DNA of 64,000 bases from an uncultured Candidatus Peribacteria bacterium (lineage in GTDB: Bacteria; Patescibacteriota; Gracilibacteria; UM-FILTER-43-11), in contig CAYWJA010000003.1 in NCBI GenBank assembly GCA_964458485.1, positions 30,524 through 94,523 of the forward strand. The letters run 5' to 3'. Below are positions 1 through 8,664 of the stretch, piece after piece. The stretch's first letter is position 1; the number at the start of each line of letters is the position of its first letter. The position numbers and the translations under genes are program-made. The notes beneath the pieces were generated by a model. It did not search any database. It was not told the DNA's origin and saw only the letters and a program-made list of their open reading frames with translations.

Positions 1-126
1 TTCTTCTTGCTGACTTTTTTACTGATTGATGCAGGTGTATGTAATACATCATCCGGTATTGTTACCCAGTTTGTATCTTTTTTCATTTTGTTTTTGTTAT
101 TTTTATTTTTTATTAGTTATATATTG

Positions 127-155: not shown

Positions 156-2519
156 TTACTTATTCTTTCTCCTTCTGCCGATAATGGCAGCACCACCAAG
201 CATGGAAGCGGAAATTACAATCCATACTGCAACAGGACCACTTTTCGGCTGACTAGGTACTTTGGTCAAACTTGTATTAGAAAGTTTACTTGTTGTCTTT
301 TTTGCATTGCTATCGTTAGTAGTTGTTGTTTTCGAATCTGTAGATGAGCTAGTTGATTCAGTTTTAGCAGTAGAAGTGGATGAGCTTGTGTTTGATGATG
401 TTTGAGTAGCTACCACACCTGGCTGTAAATAACTTAAATATTTTGCCCCTTTCCCTGTAATAGTCACATTAGATGTTACTGGTAATTTTGAGCTAAGGTC
501 TTTAAGTGTTATGCCATCTATTGCTACATCTGTTTTATCTTTCGTTGTCACAAGTCTGCTATAAGTAATGGTGGCGATCTTATTAACAGCAATACTATCT
601 ATAATAATATTATTATTCTTATCTAACTTGGCCCCTGATAAATTTTCTATTGCACCAGCAGTCACATCACCGGTCGCAGAGCTAAAATATGGTTCAAGCT
701 GAATATTTGCTGCTGAAACTGCACTCGGATTTTTAATATTCATCTTAAAATAAACACGGGTGGTTTTGTTTTTTGGTAAAACAAGACCTGAACTTTTTAC
801 GCTTGCCTCTTTATATACATTGCCATCAATAGATGCTAATTTGCTGACTTCTAATCTTAATTCTCCAATATACATGGTACCTCCGCCGGAAGATGAAGTA
901 GAAGAATGACCTCCTCCGCCCAAGCCACCACCGGATGAAGAACTGCTTGAGCTACTGCCAGATCCACCAGACGAAGAAGATGAACCGGAAGAAGAACTTG
1001 ATGAAGAACTACTGGAGCTACTACTGGAAGAACTTGAAGATGAGCCAGATGATTTTTTAATATATTTCCCCACATAAACATGACTAGCTCCTGAAATAAG
1101 ATTAAATGTTATATCTTTTGGTGTTGTAAACCCGGATATTGCTTTAAATACAATTTTATATTGTATTCCAGGGCTAACACTTGATTTAAGCATAAAATTG
1201 TCTGGAGTCTTCCCTGAGCCATAATTATCTATATAAGTTGGATCGGTAACTGAAGAAATAGTATAAAAACCACTCAAGTTATTGGTACTAACTGTGATTT
1301 GTGTAGTTTCACTTGAAAGTGAAGAACTACCACTACTTTTTGATGAACTTGAGCTGGAAGATGAACTACTACCGGAGCTACTACCAGATGAAGAACTTAT
1401 ATATGTTCCTTCAAATCTTAGTGGCTTGCCGGTAATCAAATTGAATGTAATGTCTTTTGGTTTTGTGAAACCTATTACACTATCAAAAATTATCATATAT
1501 TTTGTACCGGGCTCCCCCATGGAACTCAAATTAAACGTTTTCTCACCTATCCCATATCTTGGTTCATCTAACAGATTGGTAAGGGATCTGATTGTGTACT
1601 TACCCTTTTCTATATTTGGCTTAACCGTTACGCTTGTAACACCTCTGGATGAAGAACTAGTGTTATCTGACGAAGTACTAATATATGTACCAGAGAATCT
1701 TTGTGGCTGATTAGTAATTAAACTAAAAGTAATATCTCTTGGGGTTATATAACCTGTAACACTATCGAATGTGATTTTATATTTTAATCCCGGGTTATCT
1801 CCTGAGCTTAAATTTATAGTAGATTCTCCTGTTCCCGTTCTTGGTTCATCTATTGGATTGTCAATTGATCGAATAGAATATTTACCATCAGAAATATTTG
1901 TTGAAACAGTTACAGCTGTGTAGCCTGTTGGAATAACGGCAGTAGAAGTTTTTTTTGCTATTTGATCAGATGGCCTTGTGGCCGGTTTAGTTGGATCAAT
2001 TGCATCGGACTTTGAATCTGTAAGCCCATCTGTTGGCACCTTAGCAGGCTTGGTTGGGTCGATCGCAACAGGAGCCTTTGTTTTATCCGTAATTTGATCA
2101 GATGGTAATTGTGTAATTTTAGTCGAATCGGTGGTCTTATCCACCATTTTGTCACTAGGCGTTTTTGGAGGGTATACATCATCCTTAAAAACCGGAACTT
2201 TTGTTAATGAGTCTGTTGGTACCTCCGCAGGCTTTGTGGGATCTGTGACTACGGGGGTCTTTTCAACTTTTTCTATAGTTGTTTTTACTGTTGTATCTGT
2301 TGTTGTTAAATCTCCTTTTAATAACTTCGATAATTGATTGAAGTTAAGTGCACCTGCAACAACTAAAACTATAAATACAGAAGCTAACCCAATAAATAAT
2401 GGTTTTTTGTATATTGGTATACTTTGAGCCGATTTATTTACAGGCTGTGCAGTATTTTGTGTGGGCGTTTGTGCCGTCACATTACCCTGTGTGTTTTGTG
2501 GGTTATTTTCTGTGTTCAT
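156..2519 (-). CDS. Large cell-surface repeat protein (787 aa) with Ser/Gly linkers and a C-terminal sorting-signal-like tail
   Basis: Long ORF. N-terminal hydrophobic segment PLFIGLASVFIVLVVAGAL. Pro/Thr-rich PTKPA-type repeats. Three ~85-aa repeats (KYKITFDSVTGYITPRDITFSLI / KYMIIFDSVIGFTKPKDITFNLI / QYKIVFKAISGFTTPKDITFNLI) separated by long Ser runs. C-terminus is VPSQPKSGP + hydrophobic helix + GRRRKNK. Confidence 0.8.
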   Translation of the reverse strand: MNTENNPQNTQGNVTAQTPTQNTAQPVNKSAQSIPIYKKPLFIGLASVFIVLVVAGALNFNQLSKLLKGDLTTTDTTVKTTIEKVEKTPVVTDPTKPAEVPTDSLTKVPVFKDDVYPPKTPSDKMVDKTTDSTKITQLPSDQITDKTKAPVAIDPTKPAKVPTDGLTDSKSDAIDPTKPATRPSDQIAKKTSTAVIPTGYTAVTVSTNISDGKYSIRSIDNPIDEPRTGTGESTINLSSGDNPGLKYKITFDSVTGYITPRDITFSLITNQPQRFSGTYISTSSDNTSSSSRGVTSVTVKPNIEKGKYTIRSLTNLLDEPRYGIGEKTFNLSSMGEPGTKYMIIFDSVIGFTKPKDITFNLITGKPLRFEGTYISSSSGSSSGSSSSSSSSSSKSSGSSSLSSETTQITVSTNNLSGFYTISSVTDPTYIDNYGSGKTPDNFMLKSSVSPGIQYKIVFKAISGFTTPKDITFNLISGASHVYVGKYIKKSSGSSSSSSSSSSSSSSSSSSSGSSSSSGGSGSSSSSSSSGGGLGGGGHSSTSSSGGGTMYIGELRLEVSKLASIDGNVYKEASVKSSGLVLPKNKTTRVYFKMNIKNPSAVSAANIQLEPYFSSATGDVTAGAIENLSGAKLDKNNNIIIDSIAVNKIATITYSRLVTTKDKTDVAIDGITLKDLSSKLPVTSNVTITGKGAKYLSYLQPGVVATQTSSNTSSSTSTAKTESTSSSTDSKTTTTNDSNAKKTTSKLSNTSLTKVPSQPKSGPVAVWIVISASMLGGAAIIGRRRKNK

Positions 2520-2527
2520 TTTTTTTA

Positions 2528-3622
2528 TTATTTATTTATTTTAATTTTCCTCCCCTTTTTCCTCCCAAAAACAACTGCACCACCAAGGCCTGCCGCGGAA
2601 AAAATTAACCACCCAACAAGTGGGCCGTTTTGCGGCTGCAAAGGAATACTGGCAACTGTTTTTTGAAATAAGGTGGCAAAAGGATGCGTTGAGCTAAGTG
2701 GCTGATTTACTATCACACCTACTTCATTTGAGTAATCACTTTCCTTATTATTACTATCGTAAGCAGTTACTGCAAAATAGTAGGTTTGATTATTGGTAAG
2801 ACCACTAAGTCGGTAACTGGTTAAATTTCCTATAACTCTACGTCTGGAATATTGACCACTAACTTGTCCGTAATAAATATTGAAACCAGACCTATATAAA
2901 TCAGTTGTACCATCCCATTTTAAATCAACATATCCAGACCCTGTATTAACTTTAAGATTTGTAGGGCGTTTTAATGTTATTACCGATGTACCCCCTCCTA
3001 TATTTGTATTTAATGTGGTTACTGGTGTTGAAGTTGTAGTTGTTACCACAGGTGGTGTTGTAACCGTTGGAGCTGCAATAACTCCTGGATTTAATGTAAT
3101 AGATAATTCTGCTGGTTTTTTAGATAAAATATTTAAAGGAAATCCTGAATCAATTATATTTACACTCGCATGGCCAAGTTCACTTACCTGATAATCATAA
3201 AAGCTGATTTTGGATGTTGCAGCAGTAGCTGCAATAACCTCAAAGTTCACAGAGGCTACTGTTGTTTCTGTCTTCGTTACACCTCCGGAAATATTAGATC
3301 GGCCAATTTTAACACGCCCTTCAGATGAAGCAACTGTATCTTCCCCTGGCGCAGATAATGTAAAAAGTGAACTTTTTGTATCTATTCCAGTGGCTTTTAA
3401 AGACTTTGCATCATAAGTTAACCAAGATCGAACGGAGATTATCTTATTTGCACTTGGATTCTTTAATACAATATCCACCTTAAATTTATCGCCTTTCTTG
3501 GCACTAGTTACAGAAGATTTCAGCATAAGCTCTGCATCTTTTGTAGCTGCTGCGTATGTTGGCACAATCCCTGATAGGATTATTACTATTGCCGTTAGTG
3601 TTGTTATTAGTTTTTTCATCAT
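2528..3622 (-). CDS. Secreted cohesin-like + FN3 protein with C-terminal sorting-signal-like tail (candidate anchoring scaffoldin)
   Basis: Signal peptide (..GIVPTYAAA). Residues ~28-165 are cohesin-like (KGDKFKVDIVLKNPSANKIISVRSWLTYDAKSLKA..VASVNFEVIA). Residues ~219-305 are FN3-like (PTNLKVNTGSGYVDLKWDG..YYFAVTAYDSNNKESDYSNEV). C-terminus is IPLQPQNGP + hydrophobic helix + GRKKGRK. Confidence 0.75.
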   Translation of the reverse strand: MMKKLITTLTAIVIILSGIVPTYAAATKDAELMLKSSVTSAKKGDKFKVDIVLKNPSANKIISVRSWLTYDAKSLKATGIDTKSSLFTLSAPGEDTVASSEGRVKIGRSNISGGVTKTETTVASVNFEVIAATAATSKISFYDYQVSELGHASVNIIDSGFPLNILSKKPAELSITLNPGVIAAPTVTTPPVVTTTTSTPVTTLNTNIGGGTSVITLKRPTNLKVNTGSGYVDLKWDGTTDLYRSGFNIYYGQVSGQYSRRRVIGNLTSYRLSGLTNNQTYYFAVTAYDSNNKESDYSNEVGVIVNQPLSSTHPFATLFQKTVASIPLQPQNGPLVGWLIFSAAGLGGAVVFGRKKGRKIKINK

Positions 3623-3623
3623 T

Positions 3624-3727
3624 CCTATTGGTGATCCTATTGGTGATCCGATTGGTGATCCGATTGGGGTTAAGCGGTTAAGCCCCTATTGGATTCCCTA
3701 TGGATCTCCCATTGGATTCCCTATTGG
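3624..3727. repeat. Tandem-repeat-armed hairpin, ATTGGTGATCC family
   Basis: Left arm (CCTATTGGTGAT)x4-like. Right arm CCCCTATTGGATTCCCTATGGATCTCCCATTGGATTCCCTATTGG. Loop around TTAAGCGGTTAAGC. Confidence 0.85.
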
Positions 3728-4347
3728 TTAATAATTAAAAGTGGGCTACTCGGTTTTTCGAGTACGTTATAAGGTCTTGTATCGATTAATGTATTTGCGG
3801 AAGTATGTCCGGTTAAATCTTCACGATAGTCATAGGCATCAATTGCAGCACTTTTTCCTTCTAAAACTTCAAAAGTAACTACTGCAACGTGTATTTCTTT
3901 GTCTGTAACAGCTGTAGAGCTAGAACGCCCCAATTTCATTAAGCCATTTGTACTATCGAATGCATTAGCATATGGTGCATTAAGCGTAAAAGCTGATTTT
4001 GCAACATCAACTTCCACACCTTTTAACTTCGTTGGATCATAACTCAACCAACTTTGTACCGAAGTTATTGGCTTTTGATTTGTATTATCTAAAACAATGG
4101 TTACTTTTACTTTTTTATCTTCCTTTGTGGATTTAAGCACTAATTTCACATCTTTTGCAGCAACTTTGGCTTTTTTTAATGTTTCCTGAATGCTCTCTGT
4201 TGTAGATTTTTTTGATGTTTTTACAGTTTTGGTTATCGATTTTTTATTGTCGACTTTTGAAACTGCACTATCATCCTTACAACCAGTAAGTAAACTGGAA
4301 AGGATTAGAATGACTGCCGTTGCGATGATTATATCCTTAGGTTTCAT
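3721..4347 (-). CDS. Lipoprotein with a single cohesin-like module
   Basis: Lipobox LSSLLTGC after an N-terminal hydrophobic stretch. Module KVKVTIVLDNTNQKPITSVQSWLSYDPTKLKG..IHVAVVTFEVLEG parallels the cohesin-like module of 2528-3622. Confidence 0.7.
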   Translation of the reverse strand: MKPKDIIIATAVILILSSLLTGCKDDSAVSKVDNKKSITKTVKTSKKSTTESIQETLKKAKVAAKDVKLVLKSTKEDKKVKVTIVLDNTNQKPITSVQSWLSYDPTKLKGVEVDVAKSAFTLNAPYANAFDSTNGLMKLGRSSSTAVTDKEIHVAVVTFEVLEGKSAAIDAYDYREDLTGHTSANTLIDTRPYNVLEKPSSPLLIINQ

Positions 4348-4437: not shown

Positions 4438-7400
4438 TTATTTAGTTGGTATTGTTGGTATTTTTGGAGATGAAGTAGTCTTAATAACAGTCCCACCGGC
4501 TGGCACAGATGTTGTAGGTACTGTTGAATCTGGTGTCTTTTTTATAGGTTTTAATACCTGACCAGATGTTGTTGTAGTGGTAGTTGTTGTACTTGCGCTA
4601 GATGCTGCAGATGAACTTGTGGTTTTGCCCGTACTATATGTTTTTCCATACATCGCAGAGAACATCGTAAAGTCTATAAAATCTACTTTTCCATCACCAT
4701 TAAAATCTCCCTGCATAGTAGTGGCCGCCTTTTTAACTGCACTAACATTTACAGCCTTAAAGAATTTTGCAACCGGAGCCTTCATTTTAACTCCTCCGGC
4801 AGAAGCAATATTTTTTATTTGTACACTATAACGCTTGCCAGATGTTTGAGTTGCAGTTTTTAAAATAATATCTTTACCTGTTTTTCCGAATGCAACTGAG
4901 TAAATAGGTAATTTTGTAGATGAATTTTCAGGGAATATTTCAAAATCATAACTGCCTCCATTCGAACTTGATGATTTACCAAGTTTTACACTTGAAGGCC
5001 TTAGTGGTTTCTGAAATTCAATTTCTACAGTATTAGAAGATGTAGCAGACACATAATGTACAACCGGCGGCCAAGTATTTGCTGTATACCCCTTAAAGAA
5101 TGCCTTAGTTGTTCCGGAAGAAAGAGAAATACCAGATGAATCTGTTATTTTGCCGCTGCCATTTACTGCATACTCAGTGCCTGACGTTTGACTTGCTGTA
5201 GTAAGGGTAACTATATTATTTGTTGCATTAATGGTGGCACCAATTACATTTAGAGTTTTACTTACGTTGTTCTTGTCGGTAATTGTAAATTCTTTACCAC
5301 TTGCTGATATTGTTGAAGATAATATTTCTTCATTAAATGTAACCTCAAGCTGTGTAGAAGACGTAGGAACTGCTGCTACAATTTTTGGAGGAGTACTGTC
5401 TGCTGTATAGCCTTTACTGTCTTTTACAATAACGGCAATTTTACCCCTTCCTACTTTTCCGCTTTTATCTGTAGCTACAACTTCGACATCGTAAGCTTTG
5501 GAGCTACCTAGTGTAGTTTTTGCAATAGTAACTCCGGATAGTACAAACCATTGGCCGGCACTTCCTTCTTTATAGCTCGGCTTCATACACACAATAGTTT
5601 TTGAATTTGTATTACATGCACTGCTAACAGATGATGAGCTACTGGTACTAGTACTGGTTTTAGATGAGCTTGTACCAATTCCTATACTACTTGCGCTAGT
5701 GGTAGTACTGGCTTGCTTAAAATCAGGTGGTGTTACAGCACCTAATTGTCCAATTTTAGAAAGATTTACAATTACTGATGACAAATCGCTATCATCATCA
5801 CGCACGAATGCATAAAGTGTAGTGGTTGTCTTGCCGTCGTTAATTGCAACTTTTGGAGATGTATATGATTTTGAAGAAAGAACTATTGGTGCATCTCCAA
5901 CTATTTTCGGATTGGCTAAGTCTAATTGTAAAATCATACTTGCTGTTGTGCCATTTGAATCTGTAGCAATAACCTGAATTTTATGGACACCATAAGTTGC
6001 TGTTTTTGGGGGAATAATTGCTTTTGATGAATAAAGCGCGCTTTTTGCAGTTTTAGAAGCAGTTGTGCTTGCTGTTAACGCGGTAGGTGTAATGCCCATT
6101 GAAGATGAATAAGCAACTACGCTAGTAATATCACTTATGCCACTAGAGTCGCTAACCATTGCATTTACAGTAAATGAAGTTTTTCCATCTCTTGCAATTC
6201 TTTTCCCTGGAGAAACGTAGCTATTTACACTATCAATTTTTGGTCCGGTTGCTGCAGCAGATACATTTACACTTATTGTTTTTGTAACACTTTCACCAGT
6301 GCTATCTGAAGCAGTAATTTTTACTGAATATGTTTTCTGCGTAGCAGTTGTAGGTATAGTGAATTTATCAGAAACATAAAATCCTGTTGTTTGTTCTGTC
6401 GGAGTACTGGCTGTTTTTGTAGTACTTGTAGTTGATGTAGATGCAGTAGTTGATGTAGATGCAGTAGCTGATTTCAATGTTACGAATCCGGCACCTAAAG
6501 CTCCTAAGTCTGCTACAACTGATTTAATAGTACCAATTCCATCAGTATCCGTAATTTTTGCAGAAATTGTTGCAGTAGTTTTACCGTCTGGCGGAATAGT
6601 AGTAGGGCTAATATATGCCTGATCTATCTTTGGTGCCACACTCTTGTAAATATCTTTAGTAACCATTAAAGAAACAGTACCTTTAACCGCCTCCGATCCT
6701 TTTTTAATTTCTACAGGCAATGCATATGCTGTAGTACTAGTTGGTGTGATTGTAGAAACTGTAGTTGTATATGTGTAATATTGTTGATTTTTTGGCTGAA
6801 TACCACTTGCCTTTGTTAAAAGTTGTGATTTATTACCACCAATTTGTGCAAGATTAATAATTGCACTATCTATATTATTCAAACCTACTTCATCTTCTAC
6901 AAGCACCCAGAAAGTCACCTTAGTTTTTCCATCTGGAGCTACTTTATAAGGTAATGCTTTGGAACTTGCAGATACAATTTTCATTTGTTTTTTAAGTCCG
7001 CTTACTACCAATGCCTTAGAAAAAGTTGTTGTTTCACTACTTTTGTTTATAAATTTAAGATCATAAACTCCTGCAGTAAAAGCCTTGGCAACTGTAAAGC
7101 TTAATGCTCCTGAACTTTGTTTGGCAATTTTTGCCTCTACAGTGCCAACAAGTACTTTCGTAACTGTATCTAAATTTGTACCAACTGCTACAACTGTTTT
7201 ATCAGCATCATTTGTAATAGTAGATGGAGTAACCTTAGTTACACTAATTGAAGCTGCTTTGTACCCAATAAAGTTCATTAAAGTATTATTTACCAATTTT
7301 AATCCACCTGAGTCTGTTACTCCGTTGAATCTGATAAAGTAATTTTTGTCTGCAATTAATTTAGGAAGTGTTACATTTATTGTTGTACCTGCTGTATCTA

Positions 7401-8664
7401 GTTCAGTTTTTACAAGTGTTACCTTTGCGGAAGAATTATCATAAATTTCTATATTTATAGGGGTGACTGTACTAGATGTAAGCGCTCCGCTAAAAGTTAA
7501 TGCTACATTTGTACTTGATTTTACAGTCACAGTTTTTAGCAATACATCACTAACATTAATACCATCTGGGTTTTGGTATCCATCGAATTTAACTATATTA
7601 TATTTTGAACCTAATGCTCCTGTTGTATTACCCGTTATATTTTTATTCTTTAAGGTTAATACATATTGCTGTCCCTTCTGTAAATCTGCACTTGTTTTTA
7701 AAATTACTGTTTTTTGATCATAGCCTGTAAATGTTAAATGGCCATATCCAGTTACTGCACTTGATATAGCTACAGGTGTATTTGTTGAACTATGAGTTAA
7801 TACATAATCTGCTGCATTACCAACATTAGTTAAAAGGTCGGAAAAACGAACAACTATATGATCTTTACTTAATGCTTCTGCATTAAAAGCCCGCAGGTTC
7901 GCCTTGCTGGTTAGCTTTAATGTTCCCGTATCTATACTAGTAAAAGTTTTACTTGTTTTATAAGGAATTGATCCTGCAGCTGCCTCAACTACTTCAACAT
8001 TGGAGGTTGTCATAGTAATGCTGCTGCCAGCAGTACCACTAACCTTTGTAGATAATTTTATAAGAGGTCTTGTATCGTCCTTTTTCAAATTAACTGCTTT
8101 ACTTGAAAAAAGAGATACTGTTACTTCTCCGTTTGTACTTGTATTTACACTTTTTAAATCTGCAGACTGAAATACTGTACCGGTTGTAGCATTACTATCG
8201 AATACAATTGAATTGGTATTAAAAGTAAGTGCGGTTACTGGGCTATATTTTAATTTAAATTTAATACTATGTAATTTTACATCTGAGGTAATTGCACTCT
8301 GCCTTAATTTAACTGCTATATTTCCACTATCTGCATGACCTGCTGTGTAACTTGGAATATATAAAGCTGCAGATCCTGCCGGAGCTTTTTTAACCTCCGT
8401 AAGAGCTGCCCTGAACAAACTTGGATTTGTGTAGCCAAGTACACCCACCGCGACCGCAAATACAGCTGCCACACTTATTAGTGCATATTTTATTTTTGGG
8501 ACTTGATACCATTTCGCCGGTTGTGATTCCGATTGGTGATCCATTGGTGATCCATTGGTGATCCCATCGGGGTTATTGTGATCATCCGTTTGAGTTCCCC
8601 CATTGGATCCCTCCATTGGATCTCCTACTGGATCCCCTATTGATTGTGTGTTTGTTTCGTCCAT
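4438..8664 (-). CDS. Giant surface protein (1408 aa): N-terminal TM anchor, cohesin-like module, many Ig-like repeats, dockerin/EF-hand-like loop near C-terminus
   Basis: TM YALISVAAVFAVAVGVLG followed by NPSLFRA. Repeated beta-rich ~90-aa units with Thr/Ser linkers. DFNGDGKVDFIDFTMF near the C-terminus. The first ~55 codons are encoded by a repeat hairpin (8529-8643). Confidence 0.8.
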   Translation of the reverse strand: MDETNTQSIGDPVGDPMEGSNGGTQTDDHNNPDGITNGSPMDHQSESQPAKWYQVPKIKYALISVAAVFAVAVGVLGYTNPSLFRAALTEVKKAPAGSAALYIPSYTAGHADSGNIAVKLRQSAITSDVKLHSIKFKLKYSPVTALTFNTNSIVFDSNATTGTVFQSADLKSVNTSTNGEVTVSLFSSKAVNLKKDDTRPLIKLSTKVSGTAGSSITMTTSNVEVVEAAAGSIPYKTSKTFTSIDTGTLKLTSKANLRAFNAEALSKDHIVVRFSDLLTNVGNAADYVLTHSSTNTPVAISSAVTGYGHLTFTGYDQKTVILKTSADLQKGQQYVLTLKNKNITGNTTGALGSKYNIVKFDGYQNPDGINVSDVLLKTVTVKSSTNVALTFSGALTSSTVTPINIEIYDNSSAKVTLVKTELDTAGTTINVTLPKLIADKNYFIRFNGVTDSGGLKLVNNTLMNFIGYKAASISVTKVTPSTITNDADKTVVAVGTNLDTVTKVLVGTVEAKIAKQSSGALSFTVAKAFTAGVYDLKFINKSSETTTFSKALVVSGLKKQMKIVSASSKALPYKVAPDGKTKVTFWVLVEDEVGLNNIDSAIINLAQIGGNKSQLLTKASGIQPKNQQYYTYTTTVSTITPTSTTAYALPVEIKKGSEAVKGTVSLMVTKDIYKSVAPKIDQAYISPTTIPPDGKTTATISAKITDTDGIGTIKSVVADLGALGAGFVTLKSATASTSTTASTSTTSTTKTASTPTEQTTGFYVSDKFTIPTTATQKTYSVKITASDSTGESVTKTISVNVSAAATGPKIDSVNSYVSPGKRIARDGKTSFTVNAMVSDSSGISDITSVVAYSSSMGITPTALTASTTASKTAKSALYSSKAIIPPKTATYGVHKIQVIATDSNGTTASMILQLDLANPKIVGDAPIVLSSKSYTSPKVAINDGKTTTTLYAFVRDDDSDLSSVIVNLSKIGQLGAVTPPDFKQASTTTSASSIGIGTSSSKTSTSTSSSSSVSSACNTNSKTIVCMKPSYKEGSAGQWFVLSGVTIAKTTLGSSKAYDVEVVATDKSGKVGRGKIAVIVKDSKGYTADSTPPKIVAAVPTSSTQLEVTFNEEILSSTISASGKEFTITDKNNVSKTLNVIGATINATNNIVTLTTASQTSGTEYAVNGSGKITDSSGISLSSGTTKAFFKGYTANTWPPVVHYVSATSSNTVEIEFQKPLRPSSVKLGKSSSSNGGSYDFEIFPENSSTKLPIYSVAFGKTGKDIILKTATQTSGKRYSVQIKNIASAGGVKMKAPVAKFFKAVNVSAVKKAATTMQGDFNGDGKVDFIDFTMFSAMYGKTYSTGKTTSSSAASSASTTTTTTTTSGQVLKPIKKTPDSTVPTTSVPAGGTVIKTTSSPKIPTIPTK
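8529..8643. repeat. ATTGGTGATCC-family hairpin inside the 5' coding end of the 1408-aa gene
   Basis: CCGATTGGTGATCCATTGGTGATCCATTGGTGATCCCATCGGGG ... CCCCCATTGGATCCCTCCATTGGATCTCCTACTGGATCCCCTATTG. Confidence 0.85.

Follow-up and report, generated by a model that had tools for sequence, protein, structure and literature searches.

How are two otherwise unrelated surface proteins, encoded side by side and ending in the same unusual C-terminal sequence, held at the cell surface? The question is raised by a stretch of 64,000 nucleotides (the window) from contig CAYWJA010000003.1 of assembly GCA_964458485.1, an uncultured Candidatus Peribacteria bacterium, in which the adjacent minus-strand genes for a 364-amino acid (aa) exported cohesin protein and a 787-aa Ser/Thr-rich repeat protein both end in a short motif, a hydrophobic helix and a basic tail. 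The candidate phyla radiation (CPR), or Patescibacteria, consists of uncultured epibionts that attach to their hosts via surface proteins. The source assembly comprises 1.64 Mb in 56 contigs, with ~35% G+C and an estimated completeness of 92.7%, and it was compared with 31 relatives, with 201 genomes of the same taxonomic class and with one complete relative of the same family that was fetched whole. The comparisons described below point to the two tails being, more likely than not, a divergent, lineage-specific sortase signal of the LPXTG/LAXTG type in Peregrinibacteria rather than part of a new sorting system.

The C-terminus of the 787-aa protein (nucleotides 159–260) reads ...TKVPSQPKSGPVAVWIVISASMLGGAAIIGRRRKNK, and that of the 364-aa protein (nucleotides 2531–2647) reads ...IPLQPQNGPLVGWLIFSAAGLGGAVVFGRKKGRKIKINK, or over a longer stretch ...SIPLQPQNGPLVGWLIFSAAGLGGAVVFGRKKGRKIKINK. 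Both were read and placed correctly in the initial annotation of this DNA (open reading frames [ORFs] 156–2519 and 2528–3622, minus strand), and the tripartite layout of a C-terminal sorting signal that was claimed for them, with a motif, a 19-residue helix and a basic tail, is present in both proteins. In a BLASTP comparison of the two proteins, the alignment covers the last 42 residues only (38% identity, 67% positives, E = 3e-9), so that the tail stands as a module common to two otherwise unrelated proteins. Common to both are [VI]P-x-QP-x-[NS]-GP, a helix with W, SA and LGG, and the basic tail, and a 34-column profile made from the tails of 364-aa homologues (A1) matches the 787-aa tail within the genome (51 bits, E = 2e-13). 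The genes lie 8 nt apart, and the 787-aa gene is a lineage-specific mosaic inserted into a conserved gene pair, as would suit a functionless by-product of recent local duplication or gene conversion between neighbours. However, the DNA of the two tails shows modest identity, with many synonymous and non-synonymous differences and short identical runs, which indicates that the event was not recent, and the conserved positions are exactly those invariant in ~120 homologues. Recent gene conversion between the tails is rejected on this substitution pattern, and the by-product explanation as a whole is extremely improbable.

The shared tail is a real feature that is under strong selection in the 364-aa family. 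A search with the 364-aa protein retrieved 182 homologues at E ≤ 1e-3, and residues were counted in the best 120, which share 48–80% overall identity; positions are numbered from the Gly of the motif (G = 0), the residue before it being −1 (P1) and the residue after it +1 (P1′). The tail consensus is [IVL]P-x-QPQNGP-L-x-G-W-..-F-S-A-x-G-L-..-F-[RG]-[RK]-K. About 180 homologues keep IPxQPQNGPLxGW..FSAxGL with hardly a change, at an overall identity of only 50–60%. Within the motif, the counts among the 120 homologues are P 120, Q 114, P 119, Q 113, N 117, G 120, P 120 and L 113, the P1 residue being Ser in the three homologues that lack Asn; within the helix, they are W 120, S 112, A 107, G 118 and L 115. 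Of the helix features to which the initial annotation drew attention, W, S-A and G-L are thus near-invariant, and the terminal "GR" is not conserved (G in 35 of the 120 at that column). The [RK]-rich cluster is kept, and residues beyond it vary freely. In a full-length alignment, the mean top-residue fraction is 0.70–0.84 in the C-terminal helix as against 0.36–0.43 in the N-terminal signal peptide, and the QNGPL..W window, at 0.84, is level with folded-domain cores and ranks with the best-conserved 10-residue stretches of the protein. One helix residue distinguishes the database copy (P0001) of the 364-aa protein from that encoded in the window (GWFIF vs. GWLIF; window 2564–2620, minus strand), which is strain-level variation at a non-conserved helix position.

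Such conservation bears on the alternative that the tails are plain, uncleaved C-terminal membrane anchors, the W/SA/GLGG helix and the Pro-rich juxtamembrane motif being kept for what the protein itself does: they might form a rigid stalk exit from the membrane, let helices pack via small residues or make contact with a membrane partner, for instance the VirB6-like/pilin platform nearby. The helix of a sortase signal is normally discarded, and the helix conservation found here is unusually high for such a signal; the limitation of the strict tail to one protein family would fit a family-specific structural role, Asn at P1 is not known for sortases, and the 787-aa protein also has an N-terminal membrane segment. 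On the other side, an orthologue of 28% identity from another family of the class retains the motif KVPTMPENGP with a changed helix sequence, so that the motif, and not the helix, is the persistent element. In addition, unrelated proteins have [T/S/N]-G-P equally far from a C-terminal helix, far above chance, and recognisable LPQTG, LAxTG and TPxTG stand at that position in paralogues and neighbours. An uncleaved anchor is accordingly considered unlikely.

How often this arrangement occurs was gauged by searching every ORF of the genome for a C-terminal helix that runs into a basic tail (Table 1). All candidate tripartite tails have [T/S/N]-G in one place, at the edge of the C-terminal helix before the basic tail, and [TSN]GP was observed there five times against an expectation of 0.098 (P = 5e-8, ~50-fold); in the complete relative it was observed three times against 0.14 expected. 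The gene that follows the 364-aa orthologue ends in TP[EDQGS][TS]GP, a helix and basic residues in at least 14 relatives, and the complete genome of the same family carries LATTG, LAQTGA, LTKSGP, TPETGP, LPQTGA and QPQNGP. The initial annotation had held that the motif is none of LPXTG, implying a new dedicated system; this view is not borne out, given that QPQNG and QPKSG are in register with L-P-x-T-G and that paralogues, neighbours and relatives carry LPQTG, LAxTGP, TPxTGP and xPxTGPE at the same place. Both pentapeptides match Pro at position 2 and Gly at position 5 and differ from L-P-x-T-G at Leu1 and Thr4, and both proteins have the hydrophobic segment and a positively charged extreme C-terminus (RRRKNK and RKKGRKIKINK). 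The helix and basic tail of the 787-aa protein match the LPXTG_anchor model TIGR01167 with 17.1–18.9 bits (cut-off 15.9), at model positions 11–34 only; this model gives no match for the 364-aa tail, and PF00746 is reported for neither protein.

Pfam finds no domain in the 787-aa protein, and a homologue search was empty because Ser/Thr low-complexity words filled the candidate list; its kin were found by BLAST within the genome, where its repeats are paralogous to two proteins of contig C22 (E = 7e-20 and 1e-13) that end in LAKTGP and LAQTGP. QPKSGP therefore occupies the place of a class E-type LAXTG signal. The N-terminal anchor of the 787-aa protein is like that of its 488-aa neighbour, and its tail is like that of its 364-aa neighbour; in relatives, no gene separates the 364-aa orthologue from the 488-aa orthologue downstream, which identifies the 787-aa gene as an insertion. 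The 787- and 488-aa proteins also have in common a stretch N-Q-[LF]-S-x-L-L-K-G-x-L just after the N-terminal membrane segment (50% identity over 34 aa; window 2400–2519 and 1–116, minus strand), the 1408-aa protein encoded nearby has a comparable stretch behind its N-terminal segment, and these surface proteins may carry in it a second signature, at the N-terminus.

TABLE 1. Location of the two tails, their genes and neighbours, the sortases of the genome and further C-terminal signals (positions without a contig label are those of the window).
Feature	Location	Strand	Remarks
787-aa Ser/Thr-rich repeat surface protein gene	156..2519	-	N-terminal membrane segment and second tail; mosaic
Motif VPSQPKSGP, 787-aa protein	234..260	-	Putative site Q-P-K-S|G-P; register as in 364-aa tail
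Hydrophobic helix VAVWIVISASMLGGAAIIG, 787-aa protein	177..233	-	19 residues
Basic tail RRRKNK, 787-aa protein	159..176	-	
364-aa exported protein gene	2528..3622	-	Sec signal peptide MMKKLITTLTAIVIILSGIVPTYA|AA, cohesin, Thr/Pro linker, fn3, conserved PLSSTxPF, sorting-type tail
Motif IPLQPQNGP, 364-aa protein	2621..2647	-	Putative sortase site Q-P-Q-N|G, Pro after Gly
Hydrophobic helix LVGWLIFSAAGLGGAVVFG, 364-aa protein	2564..2620	-	19 residues; Trp +5 after Gly invariant; S-A-x-G-L conserved
Basic cytoplasmic tail RKKGRKIKINK, 364-aa protein	2531..2563	-	
488-aa gene, 5′ end in window	1..86	-	Full gene C3:29173-30639; downstream of 787-aa gene; tail beyond window KKTPSSGPTEMLLITFVITFLGLVGWKFRKVFG
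208-aa cohesin protein	3721..4347	-	Lipoprotein signal LLTGC; Pfam Cohesin E 3.2e-8
1408-aa surface protein	4438..8664	-	Weak Pfam Dockerin_1, 17.7 bits, cut-off 22.9, E 0.004
Short sortase, 252 aa	C24:10562-11320		N-terminal membrane segment and sortase domain; TGHSS...TLMTCTP...RR
Long sortase, 369 aa	C4:28716-29825	-	Signal peptide, two SLH domains (SLH E 1e-28), sortase domain; FGHSS...LYTCWPP...R
LPQTG, 525 aa	contig C4		Own-genome ORF scan
LAKTGP, 743 aa	contig C22		Own-genome ORF scan
LAQTGP, 882 aa	contig C22		Own-genome ORF scan
VPQLAATGP, 342 aa	contig C2		CARDB domain; own-genome ORF scan
TPSSGP, 488 aa	contig C3		Own-genome ORF scan
QPKSGP, 787 aa			Own-genome ORF scan
QPQNGP, 364 aa			Own-genome ORF scan
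KTKTGPETTW, 906 aa	C17:8399-11119		Own-genome ORF scan
Sequences around C-terminal signal motifs			IPLQPQNGPLVGW, KVPSQPKSGPVAV (the two tails studied here); KIQLAKTGPAG, SIRLPQTGVGV, RVPRTDETGPEAIW

A combined tail profile (A3) gives strong matches in all 22 genomes of the family, mostly two in each, and weaker matches in ~50 other genomes of the class, the retrieved tails of which read VPQTGPE, SPETGPE, TPKTGPE, APQSGPE, TPESGPA, SKTGPEMFW and similar; xPx[TS]GPE, as in the first four, is the form used by other families of the class. For the 906-aa Big_1/fn3 family, 113 homologues were retrieved and the tail register was derived for 82, with the form [KR]VP-x4-TGPE-xx-W followed by a helix and HHKRK; V occurs at −7 in 65 of these, P at −6 in 72, T at −1 in 71, P at +1 in 68 and W at +5 in 75. 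The 906- and 364-aa families thus have in common the register [IVL]P at −7/−6, T/N at −1, G at 0, P at +1 and W at +5, and the named homologues of both proteins all come from Candidatus Peregrinibacteria or the Patescibacteria group. At the edge of the C-terminal helix, the signals have the common core x-[P/A]-x-[T/S/N]-G-P(-E), of which the QPQNGP/QPKSGP tails are the most divergent form.

The same register could be taken as a separate sorting signal, [VI]P-x4-[T/N]-G-P-x3-W with a patterned helix, whose reader would be an undescribed enzyme or partner other than a sortase. Its extended form ([VI]P at −7/−6, P at +1, W at +5 and small residues at +9/+10 and +14/+15) is common to the 364-aa family, the 787-aa protein and the 906-aa family, occurs in no described sortase motif and matches no curated C-terminal sorting model. 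However, no candidate enzyme is known, exosortase/archaeosortase and rhomboid being absent, and within the same genomes the tails pass in an unbroken gradation into xPxTGPE, LAxTGP and LPQTG. The 364- and 906-aa families moreover share their C-terminal fn3 domain and tail (27% identity over 141 aa), and the common descent of this module explains part of the shared register; a separate signal therefore appears very unlikely. A bolder proposal, which seems quite improbable, is that [VI]P-x4-[T/N]-G-P-x3-W and a helix with fixed small residues constitute a distinct, extended Peregrinibacteria sorting code, read partly in the membrane, whether by sortases of a CPR-specific clade with tolerance for Asn at P1 or by a non-sortase partner; this code would direct the cohesin scaffold and a large Ig/fn3 adhesin to one surface structure and not to the wall generally. 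If true, the Asn-accepting version would be the first natural sortase signal with Asn at P1.

The strict form of the motif has a much narrower reach. No other ORF of the 1.64-Mb genome contains an exact P.QP..GP; profile A1 recovers the ~360-aa family from 17 of the 19 genomes in the organism's GTDB family, plus one further genome in its order, and little else beyond the 787-aa tail; and among 1.84 billion representative proteins the strict tail profile finds only seven clusters, all of the 364-aa family. The strict QPQNGP...W...SAxGL tail is therefore family-specific and not a widely shared module. The reservation attached to the initial annotation, that the motif might occur only in the two paralogues, thus applies to the strict motif, which is found in one orthologous family and one mosaic paralogue, and does not apply to the looser signal class, which is found in several unrelated families.

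With respect to the enzyme, the initial annotation had named sortase, exosortase, archaeosortase and rhombosortase systems and had placed a dedicated processing enzyme outside the window. The exosortase/archaeosortase family PF09721 has no match at E ≤ 1 in the 92.7%-complete genome, and the rhomboid family PF01694 has none at E ≤ 0.1, all 14 bacterial and archaeal control genomes being positive for the latter; exosortase, archaeosortase and rhombosortase are therefore excluded as the processing enzyme within this completeness. Two sortases (PF04203, 87.9 and 67.7 bits) are encoded elsewhere in the genome, on contigs C24 and C4, and are the likely enzymes. The location outside the window is thus upheld, and a new dedicated system is not, the tails being in LPXTG register. 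Both sortases have the His-Cys-Arg triad, with His in TGHSS and FGHSS, Cys in TLMTC and LYTC, and Arg. The best class scores of the short sortase are 69 bits for class C, 62.3 bits for class E (NF033747, cut-off 160) and 58 bits for class D, and the solved structures closest to the sortases of the genome are class C and class D enzymes. Sortases are present in 30 of the 31 relatives and in 196 of the 201 genomes of the class.

One relative from the order, G019 (98% complete), has the short sortase only, yet it has kept both the LPQTG protein and the QPQNGP family. The SLH-fused long sortase is ruled out by this genome as a dedicated QPQNGP enzyme, and for the same reason the short, universal sortase is the more likely reader of the QPQNGP/QPKSGP tails. 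The long SLH-sortase gene itself lies 4–8 kb from the gene for an fn3 protein of ~500 aa that ends in ...VKSIRLPQTG, a helix and RRK (C4:35271-36848, plus strand, in the source genome), and this linkage is found in at least eight genomes of the family, namely the source genome, the complete relative and at least six more (including L129, L131, L134, L135, L137 and L139). It suggests a linked enzyme–substrate pair of a wall-bound (SLH) sortase and a canonical substrate; the pairing is not exclusive, since the LPQTG protein is kept in G019 without the long sortase. In the complete relative, a further sortase domain (G010:C1:1321804-1322187, plus strand, 56.9 bits) lies inside a 2325-aa open frame, which possibly encodes a giant protein in which the sortase is embedded.

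Taken as a variant sortase signal, the tails would act as follows. The precursor would be exported via Sec and retained in the membrane by its C-terminal helix and basic tail; a membrane-bound sortase, likeliest the 252-aa enzyme of contig C24, would cut Q-P-x-[N/S]-G-P between Asn/Ser and Gly and pass the protein to a peptidoglycan precursor. The 364-aa protein would thereby become a wall-bound single-cohesin scaffold like ScaE, which could dock the neighbouring giant dockerin-like adhesins. Cleavage and its site, the identity of the acting sortase and the attachment to peptidoglycan are all predictions from sequence. The N-terminal secretion signal of the 364-aa protein is a classical signal peptide that ends TYA|AA, the genome has an MraY-family gene, and peptidoglycan synthesis has been reported to be complete in Peribacteria (PMC4736985).

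Several observations weigh against a sortase signal. The tails are unusual in having Asn/Ser at P1, Pro at P1′, Trp at +5, an upstream [VI]P and a patterned helix, and to our knowledge Asn at P1 occurs in no sortase motif. It is found in 117 of the 120 homologues and is absent from the sortase motifs of a review (PMC8225981); Gln at position 1 is also unusual for a sortase signal. Conservation at the x position (Gln in 113 of 120), at W and at S-A-x-G-L far exceeds that of ordinary LPXTG signals, and this excess at x and within the membrane suggests a further or different constraint. No curated model of NCBIfam or Pfam recognises the motif part, and at E ≤ 10 NCBIfam gives no CTERM sorting model for either tail except the helix part of LPXTG_anchor. 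The 906-aa family is without Pro or Ala at P3, so that its common core with the other tails is only [T/S/N]-G-P, and its most persistent element is [KR]VP, seven residues before the Gly. The N-terminal membrane segment of the 787-aa protein, which begins after 38 residues and has a possible AGA|L site, is uncertain in its cleavage and may stay uncleaved. As to the enzymes, neither sortase reaches any class-model cut-off (160–165 bits), and no sortase gene adjoins the 364- and 787-aa genes. Sortase is so common in the class (196 of 201 genomes) that its joint presence with the tail discriminates nothing; the five sortase-negative genomes of the class have no tail matches, which is not significant.

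Pfam detects cohesin (E = 1.3e-7) and fn3 (E = 1.2e-6) in the 364-aa protein, and upstream lies the gene for a second cohesin protein with the lipoprotein signal LLTGC; the operon therefore has one lipid-anchored cohesin and one with a sortase-type tail. The 1408-aa surface protein, with its weak dockerin match, is a possible ligand of the anchored cohesins. ScaE of Ruminococcus flavefaciens is a single-cohesin protein that is anchored by sortase through LPXTG (PMC5301203). Like ScaE, the 364-aa protein is small and exported and combines a single cohesin with a C-terminal sorting signal, and large proteins with dockerin-like modules are encoded nearby; it departs from ScaE in having an fn3 domain after the cohesin and QPQNGP as its signal, in the lack of evident glycoside hydrolases and in a dockerin match that lies below threshold. 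The finding supports the idea of a wall-borne cohesin–dockerin adhesion scaffold in the lineage. Ahead of the start codons, the stop-to-stop frames of the 364-aa gene (window 3623–3690) and the 906-aa gene (upstream of C17:8399-11119) translate into PIGSPIGSPIG repeats, which are tandem-repeat hairpins at gene boundaries; Rfam has no match in the window.

Curated LPXTG models miss CPR anchoring signals, and wall-anchored surface proteins are consequently under-predicted. A defined class grammar, x-[P/A]-x-[T/S/N]-G-P(E) with the subclass [VI]P-x4-[T/N]GP-x3-W, would let such proteins be predicted and would point to a sortase clade of relaxed or shifted specificity, possibly with Asn at P1, of potential interest for sortase-ligation work. 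CPR bacteria have been stated to encode sortases (PMC4736985, PMC6744442), and a literature search found no description of CPR sorting motifs.

Among the known sorting systems, PEP-CTERM, PGF-CTERM, VPXXXP-CTERM and GlyGly-CTERM share the succession of short motif, helix and basic tail with the signals described here, but their motifs differ, none of their NCBIfam models matches at E ≤ 10 and their enzymes are absent from the genome; identity with VPXXXP-CTERM was rejected on the grounds of wrong spacing, no model match and no archaeosortase. Sortase motifs by class are LPXTG for A, C and F, (N/S/P)PXTG and NPQTN for B, LPXTA for D and LAXTG for E (PMC8225981). Class B (NPQTN/NPKSS/(S/P)PxTG; Staphylococcus, Listeria, Clostridioides) offers precedents for a first residue other than Leu and for Ser in place of Thr, the latter in NPKSS, one of the Listeria SrtB motifs NPKSS/NAKTN (PMC8225981); in contrast to class B, there is no class B-like sortase and no haem-uptake context here, and Gly is kept at position 5. 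The LPXTG signals of class A (TIGR01167, PF00746; Firmicutes) agree with the tails in tripartite layout, Pro2, Gly5, a helix within 1–3 residues, the basic tail and exported surface carriers, and His-Cys-Arg sortases are encoded in the genome. They differ from the tails, which have Gln for Leu, Asn/Ser for the scissile Thr, an invariant Pro after Gly, Trp at +5, the upstream [VI]P and patterned small helix residues; moreover, the curated models match the helix and tail of one protein only, and the sortases fit no class model. From the class E/LAXTG system of Actinobacteria, the tails differ in having Pro, not Ala, at P3, the short sortase falls far below the 160-bit cut-off and the host is a CPR bacterium. 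Nevertheless, LAKTGP, LAQTGP and LAATGP occur on three proteins of the genome, two of which are 787-aa paralogues, and the short sortase scores 62 bits for class E as against 69 bits for class C. SrtE1 of Streptomyces coelicolor tolerates Ala or Pro at P3 (PMC5148588), a tolerance that would cover the [P/A] variation among these signals.

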